Shown here piece by piece: positions 46,039-61,689 of a stretch of 64,000 nt of DNA; position 1 is the first letter of the stretch, and each line of letters begins with the position of its first letter. Source of the stretch: an uncultured Nitrospiraceae bacterium. Its GTDB lineage: Bacteria > Nitrospirota > Thermodesulfovibrionia > Thermodesulfovibrionales > SM23-35. The notes beneath the pieces were generated by a model. The model searched no databases, was not told where the DNA came from, and saw only the letters and a program-made list of their open reading frames with translations. The DNA lies in the NCBI GenBank assembly GCA_963727775.1, contig CAVSHB010000003.1:32001-96000 (forward strand). The letters are read 5' to 3'. The position numbers and the translations under genes were made by a program.

Positions 46039-46239
46039 TTAACGTTTTTTTCTTATTTCAGATATTATCTCCCTTATATCGGTATCTTTAAGCCACTGGT
46101 CTCGCTCTTTGGTATAATCTCCCCGTCCGGTTTCAAACTGCTGCAGGAAGCGTACCATTCCAAGCGGTCCCAGTTTCTTTGCGACTGCTTCCAGACCCGC
46201 CTTTCGTATGACAGCCGGGTTCATCGTTAACGTAGTCAT
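46039..46239 (-). CDS. Small putative antitoxin
   Basis: G..AL...LG..G..RFL..F..G.GDYT.ER pattern typical of partners of this PIN class; ATGA overlap. Confidence 0.7.
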   Translation of the reverse strand: MTTLTMNPAVIRKAGLEAVAKKLGPLGMVRFLQQFETGRGDYTKERDQWLKDTDIREIISEIRKKR

Positions 46240-46679
46240 TTAATCACCTCCATCACCCACCGTAGCGGGTTTGCTACCTTCACTTTCAGCGTTCTTTTGT
46301 TCTTCGCTGCTTTGCTCAACAAATTGTCGTCTGTTGTAAGAAGTATCTCTGCCTTTGCTTTTTCTGCGCATGCTACGTGTAATGCATCGAGCGTTTTCAG
46401 CCCCAATTTCTTAATTTCAATAGCGCGCTTTTCAACTACCGCATCGATCTTAACGTGCGCATCGCGGACGGTTGAAAGAATCTGTACCATGAGCCGTTTG
46501 TCATCATCGGGCATTTTAGAAATTTCGTAATCTATTGCATCACTTCCTATTACGCTCCAACCAACCGTTCGGCTATGATTAAGAATAGAAAGGATCGCTT
46601 CTGCCTCCAGATGAATCCTGCTCTGCATTTGATCATCGAATGGCCGATTAAGACAGCACACATCGAAATAAATTCTCAT
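46236..46679 (-). CDS. PIN-domain protein
   Basis: YFDVCCLNRPFDD, DALHVACA, LTTDD, NP. Confidence 0.85.
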   Translation of the reverse strand: MRIYFDVCCLNRPFDDQMQSRIHLEAEAILSILNHSRTVGWSVIGSDAIDYEISKMPDDDKRLMVQILSTVRDAHVKIDAVVEKRAIEIKKLGLKTLDALHVACAEKAKAEILLTTDDNLLSKAAKNKRTLKVKVANPLRWVMEVIK

Positions 46680-46824
46680 ATGAATAATATTATCAGACGG
46701 GTACGATAGCTGCAAGACGTATTGGAAACCATGCCGAAGCGAACCTCTCCCAAAAAACTTTCCCCTGTCTACTTACCGCACAATCTATGCCCTTTTGAGA
46801 AGAGCTGACCCTATAGACTCTTTA

Positions 46825-46908
46825 TTGAATGGAATTCTTTGAGAAGCCTCTGCCCGATAGTTCTTAATAGTTCAATTTTCATATAAAATTTATTTTACCA
46901 AAAAACAC
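46825..46908 (+). repeat. 84-bp direct repeat, copy 2
   Basis: Identical to 45850-45933. Confidence 0.95.
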
Positions 46909-47207
46909 GACTACAGAAACAATAATCGGGAATATCGGCAGCAAAAGCTTACCGGTTCTTTTCAGCGAACTATACCTTTTGCATATTCCGGTGACCTGCC
47001 ACCCATTCTGACGAGAGGCAGCCACGGGGTTGCAGGGAAGAGATGCGAATATTTTGATATCGTGAATATGGTTGGTCCGCCTCTAAATACGCACAGTCTG
47101 TATGTGGATAGTATCTACAAGCCAATACTTTCAGAAAATCGAAACTCCAGCAATAGTCCACCGCGCTATACGTAACAAAACCTACTTTTTCTTTTAGTTT
47201 CAGTTGG

Positions 47208-48140
47208 TTATATGCTGTTGTCTATTATCCCTTTTTTGTCCCACTCAAAGCTATCATCTCTTATTGGCTGTGTCCTTTGCAGTACAACGTTAATGGCTTT
47301 ATAGTAGTCCCGCTGCACTTTGAGATTGGAGACTCTACAATAGCACTGCGTTGTAGTGATCCGGCTGTGGCCCAGTAAATCCTGTATGGTAACGAGATCG
47401 GCATCTGCATTCAATAACTGTGTTGCCATAGTGTGCCTCAAGTGATGACAGGATACCGCTATCCCCGCTCTCTGTGCATAGTGTTCGATCCTCTTTTGAA
47501 TGCCGCGAACTGATATCGGCTTCCCCCTAAGCGGCCCCTTTTGCACTAAGAACAACCTTTTCTCCTTCGACCATCTACGTTTATCCATATAAGTTTTTAA
47601 GGTACTCAGAGCGTCATCGCTGAGATAGACAACTCTGTCCTTGCTGCCTTTCCCATTGAAGACATAAAGCTGTCTGCTGCGATACTCTATCGCATCTGCT
47701 GTCAGTCGCGCAACCTCTTCAACCCGCAGACCGCATCTGAGCATTAGCATGAACATGGCCCGATCTCTGGTATCGCTGATTTCGTTGAAGAGTGCTGCAA
47801 CCTGCTGGTCTCTGAGATGTTTGGGCAGCGGCCGCGGTAACCGAAGCCTGTATTTCTTTTTGACGGGGTTGGCAATAGGCATTCTCTCCTCTTCTATAAG
47901 ATAATCATAAAAGGTATGGATGCAGCCGAAATGACAATTGATGGTCTTTGGTTTCTTCCTCCTTCTCAAGAGATGGTCCATATAGGCGTCCGTTTCTTTA
48001 GACGTTGCCCGCTCTATAGGAATCCGCAGCCAGGCACTGAAATGACCAAGGATATTGACGTAGTTTTTCACGGTGTGCACCGAATAGTTCCTCCGCTTCA
48101 GAAATCTCCGGTATCTCGCAATCAGCTCAGTAGGCTCCAT
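47208..48140 (-). CDS. Tyrosine recombinase (second of pair)
   Basis: CGLR, KGSKDR, HHLRH, LGH, TQCY. Confidence 0.9.
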   Translation of the reverse strand: MEPTELIARYRRFLKRRNYSVHTVKNYVNILGHFSAWLRIPIERATSKETDAYMDHLLRRRKKPKTINCHFGCIHTFYDYLIEEERMPIANPVKKKYRLRLPRPLPKHLRDQQVAALFNEISDTRDRAMFMLMLRCGLRVEEVARLTADAIEYRSRQLYVFNGKGSKDRVVYLSDDALSTLKTYMDKRRWSKEKRLFLVQKGPLRGKPISVRGIQKRIEHYAQRAGIAVSCHHLRHTMATQLLNADADLVTIQDLLGHSRITTTQCYCRVSNLKVQRDYYKAINVVLQRTQPIRDDSFEWDKKGIIDNSI

Positions 48141-49140
48141 CAATGCCTCCTTGCTCGATAATCGCCATGGCACGGAAGTACTCCTCCTCCCGGCTTTTAT
48201 CGGTAAGGCGAGCATACCGCCGGGTCATCTCTATATCGCGATGGCCCAACAAGAGCTGGAGACATTCCAGGCGCATGCCCGCGTTCAGCAGTTCACTCGC
48301 AAAGGTATGTCTCATGCTGTGGATCGTGTAACCTTTATGCTGCAGCCCTGCAGCACATATATACTTCACAAAAATATTGCGGGCTTGAGTGTACCCTAAA
48401 TGTCTATGCTGTAGACCGGGGAATAGATACTCGCTTTGATGTTTTCTTTTTCTAAGCCAGAGCCTTAAGGCCATTAAAGCATCGTCGCTGAGATAGACCA
48501 CTCGTCCAAGGCAGTTCTTTTCCCCCTCATAAATGTGTATCTTTCTTTCCCTAACATCCAAGTCTCTTACATTCAGGCGAAGAACTTCGCCGATTCTCAT
48601 GCCTGTTCGTAAGAGCACGAGTATCAGGGCACGGTCACGTATCTCTTTAATAGCACCAAGAAACTTTCTTACATTGCCCGGTGCAATAGCTCTTGGCAGG
48701 AAATCAGGCACTTTGAGTTTGATCTTACGTTTGAGTATACGTTCGCCAACGATATCCTGATCGATCAGAAACCGCAGGAAAGCAAAGAGGCAATGAAGCC
48801 TTGTCCTTACCGTCGTGACCTTCAGCCCTCGATCCTGTTCGTGTTCGACAAATCTCTCAAGATCGTCACTGACTACATCTTGAAGTTGGCTCTTCCCTAT
48901 GCTGGCATAGAAAGTGAGAAAGGAACTCACAGCGTGGAGACTGCTCTCAAGAGTGCTTGGCTTGTGATTCATTCTCCACTTGTGGCGCATGTAGCTCTCG
49001 CAGGCCTCTTTGCCGGGAAACTCCATTGCAGAAATCTTCTGAAGAATACGATCAATATAAGAGCTTGCTACATCCTGATAACTTATTACTTCGATTTCAC
49101 TGCTGTGTGGTCTGCTGACAATCGGTCTTGCCTGGGTCAT
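48127..49140 (-). CDS. Tyrosine recombinase (first of pair)
   Basis: TGMR, HSMRH, LGH, TRRY; GAGGAGG RBS. Confidence 0.9.
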   Translation of the reverse strand: MTQARPIVSRPHSSEIEVISYQDVASSYIDRILQKISAMEFPGKEACESYMRHKWRMNHKPSTLESSLHAVSSFLTFYASIGKSQLQDVVSDDLERFVEHEQDRGLKVTTVRTRLHCLFAFLRFLIDQDIVGERILKRKIKLKVPDFLPRAIAPGNVRKFLGAIKEIRDRALILVLLRTGMRIGEVLRLNVRDLDVRERKIHIYEGEKNCLGRVVYLSDDALMALRLWLRKRKHQSEYLFPGLQHRHLGYTQARNIFVKYICAAGLQHKGYTIHSMRHTFASELLNAGMRLECLQLLLGHRDIEMTRRYARLTDKSREEEYFRAMAIIEQGGIDGAY

Positions 49141-49623
49141 TGATCCTCCTCTTCCTTTTTGAAAAAGCAGGCTTGATCATGACCCTTGGTGGTCCTAAGA
49201 ATCAATCAATTTTGTTACGTATAGCACTCGGAATAAAACACCATCGGAAAAACCTGAGGGCGCGTGTTTCAGCCACAAAGTCTGATTTTCAATATGATCG
49301 TGAGAGTATCAGTTTCGGATTGAAAGAAAGATATCCATCTTACGTCTTTCACTTCTAAGTGGTAAACCCGAGATACAACAGCACTGCGTCTTTAGCCATA
49401 CGTTGCTACTATTGTCGAAAGTCTGCCAGCGGTAGATTAACCAGCAATCCTTTTACTGTTTGGCATTTGTGCGAGGAGTAAGCATGGCTATTTGGAAGCC
49501 AAACAGGACGACTATTGCGTAAAACAACTTCACCCCTGCTTCCAAAAGTACTCTCTCTATTCAATTCTTCTTTTACGCATAACTTCTCAATCGCAATATA
49601 TAAAACTCGCAACCAGTGATAGA

Positions 49624-50790
49624 TTATTTTGCTCCTGCCCTGATAAGCAGTTCCTTTACCTCTTTGTGGCCATTCTGGTCAGCCGCAAACAACGCGGTTG
49701 AGCCGTCATTCGCTTTAGCATTTACGTCGGCACCCTTAGCGAGCAGCAACTCCACAACCTCTTTGTGGCCTTCCGCGGAAGCCATCATCAACGCCGTTCC
49801 GCCGTTCTGCCATTTCGCATTGACGTCGGCACCCTTAGCGAGCAGCAATTCCACGACCTCTTTGTGCCCCTTCTGGGCAGCTACAAACAATGCGATTGAG
49901 CCGTCATTCCTCTTAGCATTGACGTCGGCGCCTTTAGCGAGCAGCAACTCCACGACCTCTTTGTGGCCTTCCGTTGAAGCTATCATCAATGCGGTTGAGC
50001 CGTCATTCGCTTTAGCACTGACATCGGCACCCTTAGCGAGCAGCAACTCCACGACCTCTTTGTGCCCCTTCTGGGCAGCTACAAACAATGCGATTGAGCC
50101 GTCATTCCTCTTAGCATTGACGTCGGCGCCTTTAGCGAGCAGCAACTCCACGACCTCTTTGTGGCCTCCCGCGGAAGCTATCATCAACACGGTTGAACCG
50201 TCATTCGCTTTAGCATTGACATCGGCACCCTTAGCGAGCAGCAACTCCACGACCTCTTTGTGGCCATTCCGGGAAGCCATAAACAACGCCGTTCCGCCGT
50301 CATTCGCTTTAGCGTTAACGTCGGCACCCTTAGCGAGCAGCAACTCCACGACCTCTTTGTGGCCATTCCGGGAAGCCATAAACAACGCCGTTCCGCCGTT
50401 TCGCCATTTAGCATTGACGTCGGCACCTTTAGCGAGCAGCAACTCCACGACCTCTTTGTGGCCTCCCGCGGAAGCTATCATCAACACGGTTGAACCGTCA
50501 TTCGCTTTAGCATTGACGTCGGCACCTTTAGCGAGCAGCAACTCCACGACCTCTTTGTGGCCTCCCGCGGAAGCTATCATCAACGCGGTTGAGCCGTCAT
50601 TCGCTTTAGCATTGACATCGGCACCCTTAGCGATAAGATCTTTAATCTCAAGCAAATCGCCGTTTAGTGCTGCTTTGAGGAAATCTTCATTCACACCAGC
50701 AATGGCAACAGTTGCCCACAAAGCGAAGACCACTATCAACCCCACTACCATACCAAACGTCTTGATCAGGCTGCTCATCTTTACATGCAT
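49624..50790 (-). CDS. Exported ankyrin-repeat protein (~11 repeats)
   Basis: Hydrophobic signal peptide ending AIA; repeated TAL..AS..GHKEVVELLLAKGADVNAK. Confidence 0.92.
   Translation of the reverse strand: MHVKMSSLIKTFGMVVGLIVVFALWATVAIAGVNEDFLKAALNGDLLEIKDLIAKGADVNAKANDGSTALMIASAGGHKEVVELLLAKGADVNAKANDGSTVLMIASAGGHKEVVELLLAKGADVNAKWRNGGTALFMASRNGHKEVVELLLAKGADVNAKANDGGTALFMASRNGHKEVVELLLAKGADVNAKANDGSTVLMIASAGGHKEVVELLLAKGADVNAKRNDGSIALFVAAQKGHKEVVELLLAKGADVSAKANDGSTALMIASTEGHKEVVELLLAKGADVNAKRNDGSIALFVAAQKGHKEVVELLLAKGADVNAKWQNGGTALMMASAEGHKEVVELLLAKGADVNAKANDGSTALFAADQNGHKEVKELLIRAGAK
49640..50631. repeat. 99-bp tandem repeat array (ankyrin coding)
   Basis: gagcagcaa recurs at 49741, 49840 ... 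50533 at an exact 99-bp period. Confidence 0.92.
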
Positions 50791-51168
50791 ATAAGGTCTC
50801 CTTTAAAAACTAAGGTGAGTTATTATTAGCAAAGGCCACTTTCTTTTGCAAGTAAAAATTACCGCCATGCAAAGGCTGTAGGCGATACCTATGGATGTAT
50901 GCCTGAAAAGGATAACAGCTGTTTGGGGCTGCAGATTCTCGGTCTGTTTTTACGTAATATACGGGGATGTTTTTCACAAAAAAAGGCGGCGTTTTATTGA
51001 TTAACGGTCGAAAGTTTTATATAAACTCTTGCTTTCGAAGCTCAAGATTATAGGGAGGATTCAACGGCAGCGCCAATTCTCCGATTATGAGGAGTAGAAA
51101 CGGAAAGAAACAGATTCAGGATATCGAAATTGACGTGGTGTACAAGAAGGAGTCCTTTTTTGAACCCT

Positions 51169-51988
51169 CTATTCTCCTGTCGCGTCTTCACCATCAGAAA
51201 AGACCTCTTCATGTAAAGCAGTAAACTTAGCATGAACTTTATCCAGGTCAACTTGCGACGCACTTGGCAACACAGAAAAAGCTCCGCGCAGGCAAAAGAT
51301 CATCGACTCAATTGCGGTGAGGAGTATTCCCTCCAAGCCCGCATCACTGGGGCCGTAGCAGAATCCGGTCACGTTTCCATCTGAGTCCACTACCAATGCA
51401 ACTTTCCAAGTCACGAACGTTCACGTGCACGGTCCCGCTGAACACAGAGTATGCACTATGGTAGAAGTCCGCCAACTCAGCCCGTTCGGCAAACCACTGC
51501 GTTTTGAGTTCCCGGATATCGTTGTCATCAATATTCTGCTTGATGGTGGCGAGCAAACTATCAAGCGTTGGATTCCCCAGCGCCGACTTTACGGAGTCGC
51601 TCAAGAGCTTGAACTTATTTATAAACTTCTTACGGTGCACCTCGTCCTCAAGGATATAGGCCCACCCCACCTCTGAATCCTTCGCTATTGCGATCAGCCG
51701 GAACATTACTTCCAGCAACGTCCGGAGGAGCGTAGTTGCCTCAGCAGGCATTCCACGTTCACCCAGTACAACAACACCCTGAAAAGTCGTGAGGGCGCGA
51801 TGAAGAAGACAGGCGATCAGAAGGTGTTGTGCATTGGTGCTCGTTATTCGTGTCGCAAAGATCTCGCGATGCGCCAACTCATTCAACTCCTCCGCGAGAC
51901 CGAAGGCCTTTGTATGAGCGTGTCGAAACTGTGCGGAAATCTCGCTCATTGCGGGACTCAGGAACCCCTTATCTCTCAAATCAGGCAT
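51169..51988 (-). pseudogene. DUF5677-like helical protein, frameshifted
   Basis: LLRTLLE...Y..FS..VH pattern; one extra T near 51400 splits it into 51344-51988 and 51169-51414. Confidence 0.6.
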
Positions 51989-52250: not shown

Positions 52251-52886
52251 TTATTCTATAAATTCAACCACTACCTCTTTTATATCCCAGAGTGGTTCCA
52301 GCTTTTCCTTAATTTCCTCCTTTATTGCAGGGGCAAACTGATGGTGAGGAGGCAGGTCTATTACAACACGTACGATACCGTCCCTTAATTCAACATTTTT
52401 TACCAGGTTGGTTCGCTCCAAATCCAACCCTGATAGTGGATTCACGACTTTCCTTAGTCTTTTATGTATCACCTCTTCAGTAGTCGGGTTTTTTTCTTTT
52501 ACCAGACCATGGCGCTCTTCATAGTTCTGTATGGCTGAACGCAGACCCTCAACAGCAAGAACTGAACAATGAGCCTTAATTTTGGGCAGACCTCCAAGCG
52601 CTTCTGAAGCTGTTTTCCAATTAATTTTCTTGGCTTCATCAAGCGTCTTGCCCTTTGCAAGTTCAGTGATGATAGAACCTGTTGCAATGTTTGAAGCACA
52701 GCCATAAGATTCAAATTTGATATCATTAATAGTTTTTTTCTCAGGATCAACTTTTATATATACGGAAACCATATCTCCACAAGAAGGACTACCTTCAGTA
52801 GCTTTCCCATCGGCATCCTCAATTTGTCCCACATTTCGTGGGTGGCGAAAGTGTTCCAACACTAGTTCACTATAAGGAAATTTCAT
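52251..52886 (-). CDS. iscU: IscU/NifU-type Fe-S scaffold fused to a DUF59-like domain
   Basis: HF.HPRN.G, CGD, GC, LPKIKAHC; C-terminal LRKVVNP...V.V domain. Confidence 0.88.
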   Translation of the reverse strand: MKFPYSELVLEHFRHPRNVGQIEDADGKATEGSPSCGDMVSVYIKVDPEKKTINDIKFESYGCASNIATGSIITELAKGKTLDEAKKINWKTASEALGGLPKIKAHCSVLAVEGLRSAIQNYEERHGLVKEKNPTTEEVIHKRLRKVVNPLSGLDLERTNLVKNVELRDGIVRVVIDLPPHHQFAPAIKEEIKEKLEPLWDIKEVVVEFIE

Positions 52887-54067
52887 TTTGTGTCCTCCGT
52901 TTTTTCTTTCCCGAGTGGGCTGATTATTCTGAGTTCCTTAACTATCTCAGCCAGTGTTCCGACTATATCGTCAACATCACTCATGGTGTTATAGCGTCCA
53001 AAGGTAAAGCGTATTGAGCCATGCGCCCTTTCATGGTCGCCGCCGATACCCATAATGACATGGCTACTTTCAAGAGATCGGCTGAAGCAAGCAGAACCGG
53101 TGCTTACGGCAAAACCATACATATCGAGATGCAGGGTAATGGATTCTCCCTCTACAAAATGAAAGGTAATATTGGCATTTTGTGGAAGCCGCTTCCATCG
53201 GTGACCATTGAGGGTTGTATTCGGTATTTCGGCAAGCATGCGGTCAATAATATGATCTCTCATTTCTTGTAGCATCCGGGTTTCTTCCGGGGTCACCAAT
53301 TCTACTGCTTGAGCAAAACCTACCGCACCCGGTATATTTTCCAGGCCTGCCCTAAGGTCGAATTCCTGGAATCCGCCATCCATCCACTTGACTATGGGTG
53401 TACCTTTTCTGATGTACAAGCCGCCAATACCTTTCGGGCCGTGGATTGTATGGGCGGACACAGTGATCAGATCCACCGGTATTTCTTTTACGTTAAGAGG
53501 CACTCTGGTAAAGGTATGCGTAGCGTCGCTATGAAAGAGGACTTCTTTCTCCCGACAGATACGGCCTATGCTTTCAATATCCTGTATGGTACCTATTTCC
53601 TGATTGGCGTGCTGAATGGAAACCAGGATGGTATTATCCGTTATAGAACCTTTAAGCTGATCAAGATCCACGAAACCATCATTATCTACATTAAGATAAG
53701 TTATTTGGAAGCCCTGTTTTTCCAGCGTTCTTGCACAATGAAGTACGGAGAAATCTTCAATTCTTGAAACTATTATATGCGTGCCTTTTTTCTTCCCAAG
53801 TGCCAAAGCTATGCCTTTAAGAGCAAAATTTGAAGATTCAGTGCTTCCCGAGGTAAAAATGAATTCTTCCTGATTTGCATTTAAAGAAGTACTGAGGTCA
53901 TTACGAACTTTATCCAGGGTCTCCCTGGCTTCAATCCCCTCGGAATAGGCAAATTCCGAGGTAGCAACTGCATAATTCTCGAAGAAGTAAGGTTTCATCG
54001 CCTCTAACACTCGTTCATCGACACGAGTAGCGGCAGCATTATCTAAATATACACGTCTGCTTTGCAT
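52883..54067 (-). CDS. iscS: IscS/NifS-like protein with a degenerate PLP site
   Basis: YLDNAA, FTSGSTE, GPKG, STGSAC, SIRFT; SAHK is SAHT. Confidence 0.85.
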   Translation of the reverse strand: MQSRRVYLDNAAATRVDERVLEAMKPYFFENYAVATSEFAYSEGIEARETLDKVRNDLSTSLNANQEEFIFTSGSTESSNFALKGIALALGKKKGTHIIVSRIEDFSVLHCARTLEKQGFQITYLNVDNDGFVDLDQLKGSITDNTILVSIQHANQEIGTIQDIESIGRICREKEVLFHSDATHTFTRVPLNVKEIPVDLITVSAHTIHGPKGIGGLYIRKGTPIVKWMDGGFQEFDLRAGLENIPGAVGFAQAVELVTPEETRMLQEMRDHIIDRMLAEIPNTTLNGHRWKRLPQNANITFHFVEGESITLHLDMYGFAVSTGSACFSRSLESSHVIMGIGGDHERAHGSIRFTFGRYNTMSDVDDIVGTLAEIVKELRIISPLGKEKTEDTK

Positions 54068-54080
54068 ATTTTTTCTTCCC

Positions 54081-54500
54081 TTAGATGAAGAGCGTTATCG
54101 TTGAATCTCTTGCCTCGCTCACATAAGTGCCGACTGCACAGTAATCAGATATAAGATCCTCACGCAGATCTTCTTTCTTTATTCCCATAATTTCCATAGT
54201 CATGTCACAAGCAAGTATTTTGCCGCCGAGTTCCTTGAAGTCCTGCAGAAGCCGTTCCAGAGAAGCTACACCGACCTTTTTCATCTTTAACTTTACCATC
54301 AGCTTACCTAACCCGAACATGTTCATCTTAGACAATGGTCCTTTTTCAAGTGCGCCTTTTTTCAAACGTTGAAGGCCCCAAAATGTAAAAAAGATTGATG
54401 CTTCCATCCCCATAGCTAACGACCCATTTGCAATAATTAAGGCACTATAGACTTTGTCCATATCGCCGCTATGTACTATTATAGTTGTTTTATCCGCCAT
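54081..54500 (-). CDS. DsrE2-like (DsrE/DsrF/DrsH) sulfurtransferase
   Basis: SGDMDK, FFTFWGL, AC.MTME.MG. Confidence 0.88.
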   Translation of the reverse strand: MADKTTIIVHSGDMDKVYSALIIANGSLAMGMEASIFFTFWGLQRLKKGALEKGPLSKMNMFGLGKLMVKLKMKKVGVASLERLLQDFKELGGKILACDMTMEIMGIKKEDLREDLISDYCAVGTYVSEARDSTITLFI

Positions 54501-54510
54501 GTCTATCCTC

Positions 54511-54732
54511 CTATCGGCGTATTCTTATTCTCCATACTCCATCTTTCTCTTGAATATCAAGCAACTCCAGTCCCAGAGCCTTAACTGCCATCGGTATCTC
54601 TTTCTTGGACGATGGATGAGTACCAATGACCTCTACGATATCACCTGATTTTGCTTTCCTTAGGGCTTTGCGAGTTTCCACCAAGGGAATCGGGCAGGTT
54701 TCCCCGGTACAATCTACTAGTATATCGGCCAT
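54511..54732 (-). CDS. tusA: TusA sulfur carrier
   Basis: DCTGETCPIP motif, 73 aa, GGAGG RBS. Confidence 0.9.
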   Translation of the reverse strand: MADILVDCTGETCPIPLVETRKALRKAKSGDIVEVIGTHPSSKKEIPMAVKALGLELLDIQEKDGVWRIRIRR

Positions 54733-55164: not shown

Positions 55165-55704
55165 GTGAATAGGATCGACACCAATATGCTGATGAAAATA
55201 AAGAGATCGCTGCTGACTTGTCTTGAGCAGCTGGAAAATGAAGCCATAATACTTATTGATGCAGAAGGAAAGCACTGGGTCAATGATTTGGCGAGAAAAA
55301 TTATTGCTCAAAGAGGGCTAGCCGTCGAAGAGTTCACAGAATGGATCAAGCTCGGTTCATCTCACCTGCAAGACATCTCATACCACGACATCTGTGTCCA
55401 TCTGTGCAGGTTGCCGAATAAAGAAGTGATTTCGATTCTCAAGCCTGAGTGTAAAGACCTCGGGACTATAAAAGATGTCAATCTTACCGAGAAACAGAAA
55501 GAAATCTTGCGTTACGTTTTGGTTGGGTTTACGAACAAAGAAATAGCATATAGAATGAACCTAAGTCCCAGTACGATCAATACCCACCTTGACAATATTT
55601 ACTCGAAGCTTGGGTGCTCGTATAGGCTTGAAGCTTCGCTTATTGCGCTCAAAAATGGTCTTTTTCTTCATTCTCGTAAGATTCTGTCAAAAGAAAAGAG
55701 TTAA
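55165..55704 (+). CDS. LuxR-type HTH regulator without a REC domain
   Basis: LTEKQKEIL..G.TNKEIA..L.LS.STINTH..NIYSKLG. Confidence 0.85.
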   Translation: MNRIDTNMLMKIKRSLLTCLEQLENEAIILIDAEGKHWVNDLARKIIAQRGLAVEEFTEWIKLGSSHLQDISYHDICVHLCRLPNKEVISILKPECKDLGTIKDVNLTEKQKEILRYVLVGFTNKEIAYRMNLSPSTINTHLDNIYSKLGCSYRLEASLIALKNGLFLHSRKILSKEKS

Positions 55705-55777
55705 ATGCAAGTAATGTAGGGTGGTCACTTGTGGAGGACCCCTTGCATTATCTCCGGGAGGCGTTCGATATCATCTC

Positions 55778-57769
55778 ATGGACATACATAAAATAGATAC
55801 AACATTATCTTGGCTGCAGAAAAATGTGGCGACCCAAGCCGGCGCTTATCTTTCTATCTATGGATCCGATGGGACTGCAATTCTTACGCCTGTCAATGAG
55901 AATAGCTTCCTTTCACATATCCGCTCCACTCCGATGGGAAAGGGGACATATGAAGCTTTCATTAGAAAGAACATTGCCGAGTCTATTAAAAGCAACGACG
56001 TTTCCATTGTTATGGGTCCTGCAAAAGAATATCATTTCTTCGTCCCTATACCGTCAAATAATTTGGTCTTTGTCCTTGCAGGCGGCGGAACATATCTGTC
56101 TTTTCAGGAGTTTGAAACATTTTTTAGAGATGAAGGATATCTCTACGGCCTCAATCTCGAACACCTGAAAGAGTGGAGCATCGAAATCGGAGTTGCTGAT
56201 CGGGAGAATCTTCTGAAAAAGGCAAGCCATTTAAATTCCATATTTCATCTTTGCATAGGAACCAGCAAGCGCCAGGCCTTCACAGAGAAGAGGCATTGTA
56301 TGATGAAAATGATGCTGGGGCTTTTGTCTGGTGACGATTTGTGTGTCCGGGAAGAGGAAATTTATGTCCTCTTTTTAGACCTCATGCTCTTCCTGCTTAA
56401 TGTCGAGGGTGTCTCCGTGGCAATGCACCACAAAGGCAGCTTCACAATAAAGGGTACTGACGGTATGACAGCTGATCGGCTCCGGTACCTGGCGCAGAAG
56501 CACAGCGGGACCATCTCGGAGGTTCTGGAGAAAGGCCATCCTGTTCATTCGGAATCTGTCACGAAGATCATGCGCTCGGATTTCGGAGAAGAGATTACCT
56601 CGCTTCAAGCATTTCCTCTGCCCTGGAATGAGTGGATTCTATTACTTTTGAACTCGGATATCTGTAGCGAGGACGAAGCTTTAATATACGAGCTATGCCG
56701 GATGGCGGGTTTCCTTCTCAGGCTGGCCGCATTGCAGAATTCTCAAATGAAGTGTCTTCAGAATATCGACATCTTGCATGCAGCGACGGCACGAGTTATG
56801 TCTGTAAAGGATATGGAAATGCTCTGTGATACCATATTGGATACCTCGATGCGTCTTGTAAGTGCTCAAAGAGGTTCCTGCATGCTTGTTGATAGGGATA
56901 CGCCCGACCTCACAATTAAGGCATCGCGGGGAATCCATAAACGGATATTGGATGAACTCCGGATACGGGCCGGTGAAGGCATCGCGGGTAGGGTATTCAG
57001 TGAAGGTGAGCCCCTGCTCGTGCTTGACATCAAGAAATACAATAAAGTTTTTGCAAAGAAGCGCCCGGAATACACGACAGACTCTTTTATTAGTGTCCCC
57101 TTGATATTGGGACAAGAAACAATAGGAGTTTTGAATGTCTCCGATAAAATAACGGGAGAGAGTTTCTCTATAGAAGACCTTTGCCTTCTCCGGTCCTTCG
57201 CATCATGTGCGTCGATAGCTCTTGAACGCTCAAATTACTACGAATTCGCCAGGAACATGAAGGACCTATCTATAATTGATCCCCTCACAGAGCTTTTCAA
57301 TAAACGGTATTTCGATGAAAAGTTTTACAAAGAGATCGAGCGGGCAAAACGTTATGATTTATCTTTCTCTCTCGCTATGATCGATATCGATGATTTCAAG
57401 TTATTTAATGACACCGAGGGACACCTTGCCGGCGACGAAGTTCTGAAATGTATCGCACATCATATGAGAGAGTGTCTGCGGATGATAGATGTTGTTGCCC
57501 GGTTCGGCGGGGAAGAATTTGTAGTTGTCATGTCGCAGACGACAAAAGAAGAGGCCTTACTTGTTTCAGAGAGAATAAGAACAACCGTCAAACAAGAGAT
57601 ACCCCGCATATGGCGTAATTATCCGAAGGAGCAATTGACCGTAAGTATCGGAATCGCGGCTTTTCCCGACGATGGTGAAGACGGGAAAGAATTGCTGGAG
57701 AATGCGGACCGGGCGCTGTACAGGGCAAAACTGGAAGGTAAAGACAGAACAGTCCTATGGGAAGCATGA
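55778..57769 (+). CDS. GAF-containing diguanylate cyclase (start may be 55721)
   Basis: GEGIAG GAF; DPLT, DIDDFK..ND..GH..GD, RMID..RFGGEEF. Confidence 0.9.
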   Translation: MDIHKIDTTLSWLQKNVATQAGAYLSIYGSDGTAILTPVNENSFLSHIRSTPMGKGTYEAFIRKNIAESIKSNDVSIVMGPAKEYHFFVPIPSNNLVFVLAGGGTYLSFQEFETFFRDEGYLYGLNLEHLKEWSIEIGVADRENLLKKASHLNSIFHLCIGTSKRQAFTEKRHCMMKMMLGLLSGDDLCVREEEIYVLFLDLMLFLLNVEGVSVAMHHKGSFTIKGTDGMTADRLRYLAQKHSGTISEVLEKGHPVHSESVTKIMRSDFGEEITSLQAFPLPWNEWILLLLNSDICSEDEALIYELCRMAGFLLRLAALQNSQMKCLQNIDILHAATARVMSVKDMEMLCDTILDTSMRLVSAQRGSCMLVDRDTPDLTIKASRGIHKRILDELRIRAGEGIAGRVFSEGEPLLVLDIKKYNKVFAKKRPEYTTDSFISVPLILGQETIGVLNVSDKITGESFSIEDLCLLRSFASCASIALERSNYYEFARNMKDLSIIDPLTELFNKRYFDEKFYKEIERAKRYDLSFSLAMIDIDDFKLFNDTEGHLAGDEVLKCIAHHMRECLRMIDVVARFGGEEFVVVMSQTTKEEALLVSERIRTTVKQEIPRIWRNYPKEQLTVSIGIAAFPDDGEDGKELLENADRALYRAKLEGKDRTVLWEA

Positions 57770-57814
57770 AGGACATAGATAAAACAAGGGAGCAGAAGTG
57801 ATGGAGATGAACCA

Positions 57815-59667
57815 GTGGATTTCCAGGCCGGAAATGTCATGAAAAATGAGCCGCATGCATTAATAGAATGCATCATAAACGGCATATCCGAATCGATTAT
57901 CGTTATCAGCAACGAGCGCCGAATAAAGTGGATCAATAGGGCGGCCCGTGAGTTTCTCTTTGGCGGTGGCTCCCCTTTGAATGCCGTCCCGTGTTATGAG
58001 TGCTTCCACAAAAAGAAGATACCCTGTGATGGAGCAGATTACGACTGTCCGTTGACAAGGTGTTACTTATCTCGTGAGCCGGTGACCGTTGTTCATGAAC
58101 ATTTCAGATTTGACGGACAAAAACGTCTTCTTGAAATTGTATCATCTCCTCTCTGGGACGAGGAAGGTGTTTTTCAGGGAATCATCCAAGTGGCCCGCGA
58201 TATAACCGAACAAAAGAAGAGTACCGAACAAATTAACTTTTTAGCATCCATAATTCAGACCATTCCGGATGCGGTCTGTTCTATCGACTTGGACGGCATT
58301 ATACGTACATGGAATAAGGGCGCCGAAAAAATGTTGGGCTATAAAGGGGAGGAACTCCTGGGGAAGCATATTACCACTATTATGCCCAAGAGTGAACTTG
58401 ATCATTGTCTGACTGTACTAAATACAGAGGGATTTTTCGCAGGCTATGAGTCTGTAAGGATAGCAAAGGATGGGAGGGTTGTGCCTGTAGAAGTTACCGG
58501 CATAGCCATAAAAGATAAAGACCGAAAGGTTATAGGCTATGCTTCTATAGCGCGGGATATTACCGAGCGCAAGAGAATGGAAAAAGCTTTAAGGAATAGC
58601 GAAGAATATTTTCGGGCGTTGACTGAAAACGCCTCGGATATCATCACTATTGTCGATGCAAATGGAATCATTCTATATAAAAGCCCTTCCAGCGAACGTG
58701 TTCTTGGGTATAAGAGGGAGGAATTAATCGGCAAGGACAGCTTTGAGCTGGTTCATCCGGACGATAAATCCACTGCTATGCACGCCTTTGCCGAGAGTCT
58801 GCGCAACCCCTGCATTCCCTTCTCTGTGAGGATACGTTTTCTCCATAAAAACGGGACATGGCGTATCCTTGAAGTTGTCGGAGATAACCTTCTTGATAAT
58901 GCGGCGGTTAAAGGCATAGTCCTCAATAGCCGTGACATTACTGAGCGCGAAAATGCAGCGTGGAAACTGAAAGAAACAACTGAGGAACTGGCACGTTCCA
59001 ATACCGACTTGCAGCAGTTTGCCTATGCAGCCGCACATGACCTGCAGGAACCCTTGCATATAATCGAGGGCTTTGTAAAATTATTGTCCCGCCGTTACAA
59101 AAACAAACTCGATACAAAAGCCGACGAGTTTATTTTATACACTCTTGAGGGCGTGTACAGGATGCAGGAACTTATTAAAGATTTATTGGAATATTCTAAA
59201 GTGGGCACAAAAGGGATTGTCTTGAAACCCCTGATTCTTCGCTTGCCTTAAAAAAGGCGCTTTTAAATCTGAAAGCAGCCATTGAAGGAAACAGTGCAAT
59301 AATCACACATGGGGAGCTTCCGACTGTGATAGTTGATATCCAGCAGATGAGCATCTTGTTCCAGAACCTGATAAGCAATGCAATAAAATTCCACGGCAGC
59401 GAGGCGCCGAGGGTTCATATTTCGGCTGTAAGAAAGGAAAATGAGTGGGAATTCTCAGTCAAAGATAATGGGATCGGAATAGACCCAAAAGAAGCTGAAA
59501 GGATATTCATTGTGTTTCAGCGCCTTCACCCCAAAGCCGAGTATCCCGGGACAGGCATAGGTCTTGCAACCTGTAAGCGGATAGTCGAACGCCATGGCGG
59601 CAGAATTTGGGTGGAACCGGAGCTTATGAAGGGATCGGCCTTTTACTTTACGGTTCCTGATAGATAG
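57815..59667 (+). pseudogene. Triple-PAS sensor histidine kinase, frameshifted between HisKA and HATPase
   Basis: HDLQEP in 57815-59251; NLISNAIK, DNGIG, GTGIGL continue in another frame; break at AAACCCCTGAT ~59226-59235. Confidence 0.85.
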
Positions 59668-59760
59668 AAAAGTTCCTGAGGCTTTCTCACAAAGTAAGTT
59701 CGCCTTGAGAGAAAGTTTATATAGTGGTAATATCGGAATTAAGAGGCCAAAGAGATAGAA

Positions 59761-61689
59761 ATGAAAGATGAAAATAAAACGAAAAAGCAGCTTATAGATG
59801 AATTAATTGAGCTGCGCACGAAAACCGGCGATGCGAGAGAGTTGAGAAGCATCAGCATGGAACTGGCGATAAGCTTGTCCGAGGTCTTCGACGCATTAAA
59901 GAAGATAGCTGCCGGAGATCCTGACGTAAGTATATCGGAAGCATCGGAAGTTGAGTTAATTTCACTGTTAAAGCACATGGTCAATAGCGCAGCAGGGGAG
60001 ATCAGGGCAATGGTTGATCAATGTCATGAGTTTGCCATAAGCCTGTGTGAGCATTTTGATGTATTGAAAAGGGTCTCCAGGGGAGAGCTTGAGGCAAGGG
60101 TTTCGGGAAAATCAAAGATAGAACTATTAGAAGCTCTAAAATATGTGACAAACGAGACGATAGAGAGTATCGATAGGGCAATCACTGAACGTAATAGGTA
60201 TGAGAAGGTTATAGAAGATCTCCGGCGTCAACACGAGCTAATTTTGAATTCGGCTGGAGAAGGGATACTGGGGTTGAATACATCAGGGAAGCACACCTTT
60301 GTTAATCCTGCCGCGGCTAAAATGCTCGGCTACGAAGTTGAAGAACTTATAGGCAAGCATAGCCATACAACCTGGCATCATACGAAAGCGGATGGAAGTC
60401 CATTCCCGGAAGAAGAATGCCCGATTTATGCGGTGTATAAGGACGGTGTTGTTCATCATATGGTCGAGGAAGTTTTCTGGAGAAAGGACGGGACCAGTTT
60501 CACAGTGGAATGTACCAGTACTCCTATCTTAGAAGGCGGCAATCTTGTCGGCGCAGTCGTAAATTTCAGGAACATCACCAAGCGCAAAATGGCGGACGAA
60601 CAGATTCGTAACCAGTTACGCCATCTTGCGGCCCTGCGCGACATAGACAGAGCAATCACCTCCAGCCTTGATCTGCAATTCACCCTTAAGGTCGTTCTGG
60701 AAGAGGTTACGGCGCAATTGCAGGTCAGCGCTGCCGACGTTCTGCTTTTCAAACCGAACATGAAAACGCTCGAATACGCTGCCGGCCTCGGCTTCCGCAC
60801 ATCTGCCCTCCAGCATACTGAACTGAAGCTCGGCCAAGGCTATGCAGGACGCGCCGCAATTGAGCGCCGTATTATTAAAATTACTGATCTATCCACTGTT
60901 GAGAGCGATCTTGCACAGGCGCCGTTGCTAAAGTCTGAAGGGTTCGTCAGTTATTTTGGAGTACCGCTGATCGCTAAAGGGCAGGTAAAAGGTGTTCTGG
61001 AAATCTTCCACCGTTCACTATTGAAACCTGACGGAGAATGGCTGGGCTTTCTTGAAGCCTTAGCAGTACAGGCTGCCATCGCTATAGATAACGCAGAACT
61101 GTTCAATGAGCTTCAGCGCTCAAACATTGAGCTTACACTTGCATACGATGCAACCATCGAAGGCTGGTCACATGCGCTTGACATGCGTGACAGAGAGACA
61201 GAAGGTCATTCTCAACGGGTCACGGAGCTGACTGTAAAAATAGCTCAGGCCATGGGCGTCAGCGATCTTGAACTCGTACATATGCGCAGAGGCGCATTGC
61301 TGCATGATATCGGTAAAATGGGAATACCGGACAATATTCTTATGAAGCAGGACAGACTGACCGATGAGGAACAACAATTAATGCGTAATCATACTATGTC
61401 CGCCTATGAAATGCTTTCGCAAATTACATTCCTGAGACCGGCCCTCGACATACCTTACTGTCATCACGAGAAATGGAATGGCACAGGTTATCCCCGCGGA
61501 CTAAAGGCAAAGCAGATTCCCCTTTCTGCCCGCATTTTTGCGGTAGTGGATGTATGGGATGCATTATGTTCTGAACGCCCGTATCGTCCTGCATGGTCTA
61601 AAGCGGAAGCAAGGGAATACATAAAGCAGCAGGCCGGCATTCATTTCGATCCGGACGTTGTGAAAATATTTTTAGCAATGGAGTGGTAG
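59761..61689 (+). CDS. PAS-GAF-HD-GYP c-di-GMP phosphodiesterase
   Basis: PAS, GAF, GHS, LHDIGK, HHEKWNGTGYP. Confidence 0.92.
   Translation: MKDENKTKKQLIDELIELRTKTGDARELRSISMELAISLSEVFDALKKIAAGDPDVSISEASEVELISLLKHMVNSAAGEIRAMVDQCHEFAISLCEHFDVLKRVSRGELEARVSGKSKIELLEALKYVTNETIESIDRAITERNRYEKVIEDLRRQHELILNSAGEGILGLNTSGKHTFVNPAAAKMLGYEVEELIGKHSHTTWHHTKADGSPFPEEECPIYAVYKDGVVHHMVEEVFWRKDGTSFTVECTSTPILEGGNLVGAVVNFRNITKRKMADEQIRNQLRHLAALRDIDRAITSSLDLQFTLKVVLEEVTAQLQVSAADVLLFKPNMKTLEYAAGLGFRTSALQHTELKLGQGYAGRAAIERRIIKITDLSTVESDLAQAPLLKSEGFVSYFGVPLIAKGQVKGVLEIFHRSLLKPDGEWLGFLEALAVQAAIAIDNAELFNELQRSNIELTLAYDATIEGWSHALDMRDRETEGHSQRVTELTVKIAQAMGVSDLELVHMRRGALLHDIGKMGIPDNILMKQDRLTDEEQQLMRNHTMSAYEMLSQITFLRPALDIPYCHHEKWNGTGYPRGLKAKQIPLSARIFAVVDVWDALCSERPYRPAWSKAEAREYIKQQAGIHFDPDVVKIFLAMEW

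Follow-up and report, generated by a model that had tools for sequence, protein, structure and literature searches.

A conserved tusA-dsrE2-iscS*-iscU cassette with a lysine-less IscS homologue: a likely accessory Fe-S assembly unit of oxygen-avoiding bacteria and archaea

In the published mechanism of type I cysteine desulfurases, the Schiff-base lysine of the pyridoxal 5'-phosphate (PLP) site and a conserved histidine are both catalytic, and a conserved arginine binds the substrate (PMC8918507). Archaeoglobus fulgidus IscS is without this lysine, keeps the loop cysteine, still binds pyridoxamine phosphate (PMP) and, reportedly inactive as a desulfurase, ligates a [2Fe-2S] cluster on IscU (PMC8918507); IscS2-IscU structures from this organism have been deposited (PDB 4EB5, 4EB7, 4HVK, 4R5F). 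The sulfur source of such a lysine-less pair was posed as a question in the same review, and the factor that brings inorganic sulfur to the Fe-S scaffolds of anaerobes is likewise being sought in print (PMC7585200; PMC13066941). Another lysine-less protein is IscS1 of Methanosarcina acetivorans, encoded in the isc1 cluster MA0810 (SirA-like), MA0809 (DrsE superfamily), MA0808 (IscS1) and MA0807 (IscU1) described by Deere et al. in 2020 (PMC7585200). It formed inclusion bodies and was left uncharacterised, its neighbours were termed genes of unknown function, and the discussion noted the lysine loss and suggested a role like that of the A. fulgidus protein; the available text of that paper mentions neither a sulfur relay nor a DUF59 fusion nor a cross-phylum spread for isc1. 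The minimal ISC (iron-sulfur cluster) system, MIS, consisting of MisS and MisU, is defined by an active cysteine desulfurase without extra components (PMC13066941). Here we analyse a tusA-dsrE2-iscS*-iscU cassette, where IscS* denotes a lysine-less IscS homologue, in a 64,000-nucleotide stretch of contig CAVSHB010000003.1 (positions 32,001 to 96,000; hereafter the window) from an uncultured Nitrospiraceae bacterium. The cassette is a real, conserved, mobile and uncharacterised variant of the MIS system and likely an accessory, minimal ISC-type Fe-S assembly unit, which would probably build clusters from relayed inorganic sulfur instead of cysteine.

All four genes lie on the minus strand of the window, between 54732 and 52251, and are intact: tusA (54732-54511) encodes a 73-residue sulfur carrier of the TusA/SirA family (Pfam TusA, 5e-24), dsrE2 (54500-54081) a short DsrE2-like sulfur carrier of 139 residues (Pfam DrsE_2, 5e-36), iscS* (54067-52883) a type I cysteine-desulfurase homologue of 394 residues (Pfam Aminotran_5), and iscU (52886-52251) an IscU-type scaffold fused to DUF59, of 211 residues (Pfam NifU_N, 4e-41; FeS_assembly_P, 1e-12). 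A preliminary description of this DNA had spoken of tightly packed, co-oriented genes, and the spacing agrees with it: 10 bp between tusA and dsrE2, 13 bp between dsrE2 and iscS*, and a 4-bp overlap of iscS* and iscU, with a purine-rich, ribosome-site-like stretch at the start of each gene. None of the four proteins reached an NCBIfam cut-off. The arrangement is not novel, since the same cluster and the lysine loss are in print for isc1 (PMC7585200), which has the same four neighbours (Fig. S1 there; gene content and layout), while IscS1 shares AVATS, IEDF, NQE, DATH, SAHT and STGSACFS with IscS* (Fig. S2) and IscU1 shows the same C-terminal extension (Fig. S3), the latter two figures being compared by eye. 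Judged from gene content and these signature motifs, the cassette is a probable orthologue of isc1, differing from it in that MA0806 and MA0811 flank isc1, whereas no fifth gene is conserved in 80 cassette loci. The function proposed here is not in the literature searched: no suggestion of a TusA/DsrE relay into a lysine-less IscS was found there, most subscription journals lying outside the search.

Residue 207 of IscS*, at the Schiff-base lysine position (aligned to the D199/K199 position of A. fulgidus), is a threonine within SAHT, encoded by ACA at 53447-53449 on the minus strand, as had been read before. Asp105 (IED) stands at the position of the stacking, acid-base histidine, and further substitutions are Q156 (NQE), H184 (DATH), L242 (RAGLEN) and AVATS; the loop Cys327 (STGSAC) is retained. 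Every motif change listed in the preliminary description is present, but in DATH only Gln to His counts as one, because E. coli IscS itself reads DATQ (PMC7585200, Fig. S2). IscS* was compared with two homologue sets, which may overlap: one of database proteins (the best 120, at 79-96% identity), the other of genome loci (the best 80 out of 539, at 71-96%). Position 207 was Thr in 115 and Ala in 5 of the proteins, Thr in 79 and Ser in 1 of the loci, and Lys in none of either set. D105, C327 and R353, the last at the position of the substrate-binding arginine, were invariant (120/120 proteins, 80/80 loci); N155 and D181, which we take to be PLP or substrate contacts, were invariant across the IscS* homologues as well, and T76 and H206 nearly so. 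All Thr codons occur at position 207 (n = 81: ACC 49, ACG 14, ACT 10, ACA 7; Ser AGC 1). The median ratio of nonsynonymous to synonymous rates (dN/dS) over unsaturated pairs was 0.095 for iscS* (493/3240 pairs), 0.093 for iscU (454/2775), 0.069 for dsrE2 (491/2926) and 0.103 for tusA (507/2850). A sequencing error or a decayed pseudogene could appeal to the single base that separates ACA from AAA and to mobile-element genes in the region; the consistent absence of Lys, the use of every Thr codon, the open frame and a dN/dS of about 0.1 make either hardly credible, in line with the preliminary description, which had argued against an error, and the relaxed selection that it named as an objection was looked for and not seen. 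The lysine loss is conserved and under purifying selection. Moreover, 27 positions, among them D105, F106, Q156, H184, T207, F233 and F328, are fixed to 95% or more across 201 rows of the family, yet their residues occur in at most 10% of 132 Lys-bearing representatives, so that the IscS* pocket and the surroundings of its Cys loop are rebuilt rather than relaxed.

A monomer model gave IscS* the IscS/NFS1 fold, that is, a class V PLP-enzyme with a long Cys loop (template-modelling score, TM, about 0.84); its pocket loops (11-14, 32-43, 231-242 and 324-348) were modelled at low confidence, which leaves it uninformative on PLP binding; the best match of the sequence among solved structures is A. 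fulgidus IscS2. The protein has the fold, loop cysteine and substrate-binding arginine of a type I cysteine desulfurase; it has neither the Schiff-base lysine nor the conserved histidine, and its best NCBIfam score, 443.5 bits, falls below the cut-off of 530.75 (TIGR03402). Because both missing residues are catalytic in the published mechanism, IscS* is very unlikely, on its sequence, to be active as a desulfurase. It is like A. fulgidus IscS in the absent lysine, the kept loop cysteine and the IscU partner, and unlike it in detail: the A. fulgidus protein has Asp at the lysine site and keeps the stacking His and NNE, where IscS* has Thr207, Asp105 and NQE, and the A. fulgidus IscU, of 153 residues, is without the extra domain. 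Like MIS, the cassette belongs to anaerobes, places a homologue of type I desulfurases next to an IscU-type scaffold and includes no chaperones; it differs in an enzyme without the catalytic residues and in the addition of two sulfur carriers and DUF59.

The carriers keep one cysteine each. TusA Cys13, in the CP motif, was present in 74/74 aligned loci and DsrE2 Cys98 in 76/76, whereas TusA Cys8 (57/74) and DsrE2 Cys121 (57/76) vary. The cassette DsrE2 lies below the NCBIfam DsrE2 cut-off (NF047629; 71.9 vs 210 bits), its nearest structure is 2QS7, and the nearest fused relatives (41-49% identity) are mostly CoA-disulfide-reductase/rhodanese/TusA/DsrE fusions. The same families, with conserved cysteines, serve in the TusA/DsrE relays of sulfur oxidisers (PMC11094781; PMC4175335) and in the IscS-TusA pair of E. 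coli. TusA is a sulfur acceptor of IscS (PMC13066941), their E. coli complex has been solved (3LVJ), and TusA and DsrE3 proteins form a network in which sulfur loaded from polysulfide is exchanged (PMC11094781). Elsewhere such relays supply sulfur oxidation by sHdr or rDsr, or the thiolation of tRNA; the cassette differs in that it contains no rhodanese or sulfur-oxidation gene, and no sulfur-oxidation gene is conserved among its neighbours in the 80 loci. In IscU the cluster-site residues C36, D38, C63, K104, H106 and C107 are kept, so the earlier statement that all three scaffold cysteines (C36, C63, C107) and the persulfide Cys327 are intact holds, and the nearest structure is A. fulgidus IscU in 4EB5. 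What the preliminary description had overlooked is the C-terminal fusion of IscU to DUF59/FeS_assembly_P (residues 138-208), which contains no cysteine.

The expected tie between lysine loss and the carriers was borne out. The exact order tusA-dsrE2-iscS*-iscU occurs in 69 of the 80 loci (in one with two ORFs inserted); four others stop at a contig edge after iscS*, two lack tusA at an edge or N-run, three are rearranged or partial, and two have iscS* alone. The control consisted of 80 metagenome loci around Lys-type iscS, 60 of them with at least 900 bp upstream, and in these dsrE2 was found at 0/60 and a weak tusA match at 1/60, the profiles having been built from the cassette family, so that distant carriers may be missed. 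Conversely, the DsrE2 subfamily was found in 18/133 genomes, and 17 of the 18 genes directly precede IscS*: 16 stand before a Thr-type IscS* and one before a truncated gene that shows the N-terminal motifs of the family, while the remaining one precedes a Lys-bearing iscS, considered below. Same-operon homologues that retain the lysine, which would have spoken against the idea, were seen in none of the 80 loci; that one case after dsrE2 is the only departure. The only Lys-bearing genes in the 80 loci are three iscS genes that stand apart from the cassette and run opposite to it; they belong to canonical iscS-iscU pairs, which three Dehalococcoidales genomes carry no more than about 3 kb away from the cassette (L019:9218-10832, L021:8712-10321, L049:8887-10469). 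In two Methanobacteriaceae loci, tusA is immediately preceded on its own strand by sufC-sufB-like genes (L058:2891-7945, L063:2891-7900), an arrangement that joins the SMS scaffold to the cassette. DNA similarity among the six closest relatives sets in shortly before tusA and is lost again at about the iscU stop. A conserved fifth gene was considered and rejected, the commonest real neighbour families, counted without antisense shadow ORFs, occurring in no more than 15/80 loci.

The cassette is common to many oxygen-avoiding bacteria and archaea, the loci coming, by the names in the database records, from Thermodesulfovibrionales, Dehalococcoidia, Syntrophales, Anaerolineae, Atribacteria, Methanobacteriaceae and Thermococci. 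Its occurrence is patchy: it was present in 0/150 other genomes of the host phylum, in 1/25 relatives and in 2/71 of a Dehalococcoidia-class sample (one of the two being the search centre), and full-length IscS* in 14/61 of a Thermococci-class sample, for which an 85% completeness filter was requested. This distribution suggests spread by horizontal transfer. In the IscS tree, the Thr-type clade (support 99) lies within a clade of 16 rows (97), all but one of them without the lysine. Among 150 IscS representatives (P0121-P0270), 18 are without it and carry Thr, Leu, Asp, Met, Pro, Ser, Gly or Gln instead; they fall in several places of a tree with weak backbone support, so the loss may have occurred more than once. 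Sequences like that of A. fulgidus branch apart from the cassette family, and a single-clade constraint was not rejected (p-AU 0.20) on this weak backbone, with P0147, P0225 and P0230 standing for the A. fulgidus protein and six members of the wider Lys-less clade left unconstrained.

The host genome (G000; 96.8% complete) has dsrA, and SufB gave no match in it, whereas SufB was matched in five (G153, G167-G170) of the six closely related cassette genomes tested. Besides a nifS taken up below, it has a third Lys-bearing desulfurase-like gene. At G000:C1:1550255-1552057, a Lys-bearing gene that resembles desulfurases or selenocysteine lyases comes after a yedF-like gene (named by eye), possibly a selenium-handling locus. 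A tie of the cassette to dissimilatory sulfite reduction or sulfur respiration was rejected, dsrA being present in only 6/51 cassette genomes. Another desulfurase-like gene was found in 38 of 50 cassette genomes (50 of the 80) and none, at E 1e-15, in the other 12, one of which (G178) carries a VC1184-type homologue. At the same threshold, 10 of the 14 IscS* genomes of the Thermococci-class sample gave no other desulfurase-like match, and a Pfam search of these ten metagenome-assembled genomes (MAGs) yielded 20 more weak matches, of which the 10 classified were aminotransferases or SepCysS. All five of the ten that were tested have mcrA and the cassette's IscU as sole IscU, and SufB is present in all ten. 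The cassette thus persists where a canonical desulfurase was not found, and since IscS* is the sole desulfurase homologue found in these ten methanogen MAGs, its sulfur there is likely not derived from a canonical desulfurase.

How might such a unit work? DsrE2 Cys98 and TusA Cys13 would take up sulfane sulfur, from polysulfide or the cell persulfide pool, and hand it to Cys327 of IscS*, acting as a non-catalytic adaptor; from there the sulfur would reach IscU, the presumed site of cluster formation, and the fused DUF59 may help to deliver the cluster to target proteins. No electron donor for cluster assembly is encoded in the cassette. We infer each transfer step, and give the route from DsrE2/TusA through IscS* Cys327 to IscU an even chance of being correct. 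More doubtful is a further-reaching possibility, that the cassette is a dedicated inorganic sulfane-sulfur importer in which a pseudo-enzyme IscS is fed backwards by TusA/DsrE2 without any cysteine desulfurase, and in which, in the desulfurase-free methanogens, the carriers would also supply SufBC (SMS) and SepCysS. Several observations weigh against the proposed relay. The host has a Lys-bearing nifS and a three-domain nifU, and all 36 cassette genomes tested have either SufB (29, one weak) or a second canonical-type IscS (7, with Lys read in 5), so the cassette is never the sole Fe-S system in the genomes tested; the ten desulfurase-free MAGs are close kin and incomplete. The cysteine independence suggested in the preliminary description fits these MAGs. 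The label 'PLP-less' given there to IscS* is doubtful, as A. fulgidus IscS holds PMP without the lysine and several PLP contacts are invariant in IscS*. A persulfide relay is dispensable where sulfide is free, SufB*C working with Na2S alone, and A. fulgidus iscS2U2 did not rescue an E. coli isc/suf mutant, not even when sulfide was supplied, though Methanothrix iscSU failed as well (bioRxiv 10.1101/2024.03.20.586028). In two Anaerolineae loci (L012, L046) iscS* has no carriers or iscU nearby. Finally, one MAG (G315) holds, on different contigs, both a Lys-bearing iscS directly after a close dsrE2 homologue (L097/L199; L097:51-1613) and, in L094:3746-5591, a half-way, Lys-less iscS, with Leu at the lysine site and the histidine kept, which is accompanied by iscU-DUF59 and has no tusA or dsrE2 within 7.8 kb. 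The link between carriers and lysine loss is therefore tight, not exclusive. Since L097 is among the nearest Lys-bearing outgroups of the Thr-type clade, the carrier link may be older than the lysine loss, unless G315 is rearranged or mis-binned; the two loci are possibly a snapshot of the origin of the cassette. A complex predicted for the IscS* dimer and TusA scored 0.29 and 0.27 (mark 0.32; controls not folded) and was used neither way.

These observations leave room for other readings of the cassette. Were IscS* only to dock on IscU and lend Cys327 as the fourth cluster ligand, as already proposed for A. fulgidus IscS (PMC8918507; PMC7585200), free sulfide would be the sulfur source, and TusA and DsrE2 would buffer, strip or reduce excess sulfane sulfur. 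The predominance of CoA-disulfide-reductase fusions among the nearest fused DsrE2 relatives and the reversible nature of the transfer network among such carriers (PMC11094781) are in keeping with this, but it leaves unexplained why the carriers track the Lys-less form (17/18) and not the Lys-bearing one (0/60), since excess persulfide would be the worse problem with an active enzyme, and the failure of A. fulgidus iscS2U2 with Na2S in E. coli (bioRxiv 10.1101/2024.03.20.586028) also counts against it; we consider it unlikely. A somewhat smaller likelihood attaches to a repurposed enzyme, whose pocket would bind a non-covalent cofactor, a metal or another sulfur substrate (e.g. thiosulfate) and generate the Cys327 persulfide, with sulfur flowing out to IscU and to TusA/DsrE2 as it does from E. 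coli IscS to TusA. The solved IscS-TusA complex, the Lys-bearing iscS that sits after dsrE2 near the base of the clade, fitting an outward-flow ancestor, the (nearly) invariant N155, D181, R353, T76 and H206, and a pocket refilled at 27 positions with near-invariant residues instead of being relaxed all suit such an enzyme; however, both acid-base residues of the published mechanism are lost, many of the new residues are bulky aromatics that could merely fill the pocket, and the literature search returned no precedent. Improbable, in our view, is a relay in trans, by which a Lys-bearing NifS or IscS of the host would load TusA, a known IscS acceptor (PMC13066941), and cysteine-derived sulfur would pass through DsrE2 and IscS* to a second scaffold, making the cassette cysteine-dependent. 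Other desulfurase-like genes in the host and in 38/50 cassette genomes, and canonical iscSU close by (about 3 kb away at most) in L019, L021 and L049, could provide the donor, but no such donor was found in 10/14 Thermococci-class genomes in which the cassette is intact and conserved.

The cassette offers concrete candidates for both questions posed in print, on the sulfur source of Lys-less IscS-IscU pairs and on the factor that traffics inorganic sulfur, and a copy is present in the genetically tractable M. acetivorans. New here are the finding of IscS* as the sole desulfurase homologue in ten methanogen MAGs and the absence of dsrE2 from all 60 Lys-bearing control loci. As database records label IscS* proteins 'cysteine desulfurase', the annotation of genomes with only IscS* wrongly implies that they mobilise sulfur from cysteine. 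In M. acetivorans, suf deletion mutants are viable and an iscSU2 deletion grows much like the wild type (PMC7585200; PMC10500019; PMC13066941); if the cassette is indeed an importer, it would be the sulfur-trafficking factor sought by Deere et al. (PMC7585200) and a candidate reason why this organism survives the loss of both suf operons.

As to the surroundings of the cassette, its GC content is not clearly unusual, no tRNA was found near it, and promoter and terminator scans gave chance-level counts (10 vs 7.3 +/- 2.9 and 3 vs 2.5 +/- 1.8). None of the public sequencing runs contained half of the stretch's words (best 0.37), and two RNA libraries contain contigs of relatives (85-99%) that span portions of the cassette, which is no proof of transcription. 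In L012 and L046 a stand-alone DUF59-like gene precedes iscS* (L012:2481-5134, L046:5703-8352), with ferritin-like and ferredoxin:thioredoxin-reductase-like ORFs nearby (named by eye), and L094 also bears a second, cysteine-poor iscU-like gene. Downstream of the cassette, the window has a mobile-looking stretch (46039-51988) with a PIN-type toxin-antitoxin-like pair, two tyrosine-recombinase-like genes in tandem (47208-49140; named by eye), an ankyrin-repeat gene (49624-50790) whose product begins like a signal peptide, and a gene of the DUF5677 family (51344-51988). On the other side, a divergent LuxR-type regulator is followed by GAF-GGDEF, PAS histidine kinase and HD-GYP genes (55165-61689), genes that relatives do not share along with the cassette; the PAS histidine kinase is apparently split at about 59250-59330.

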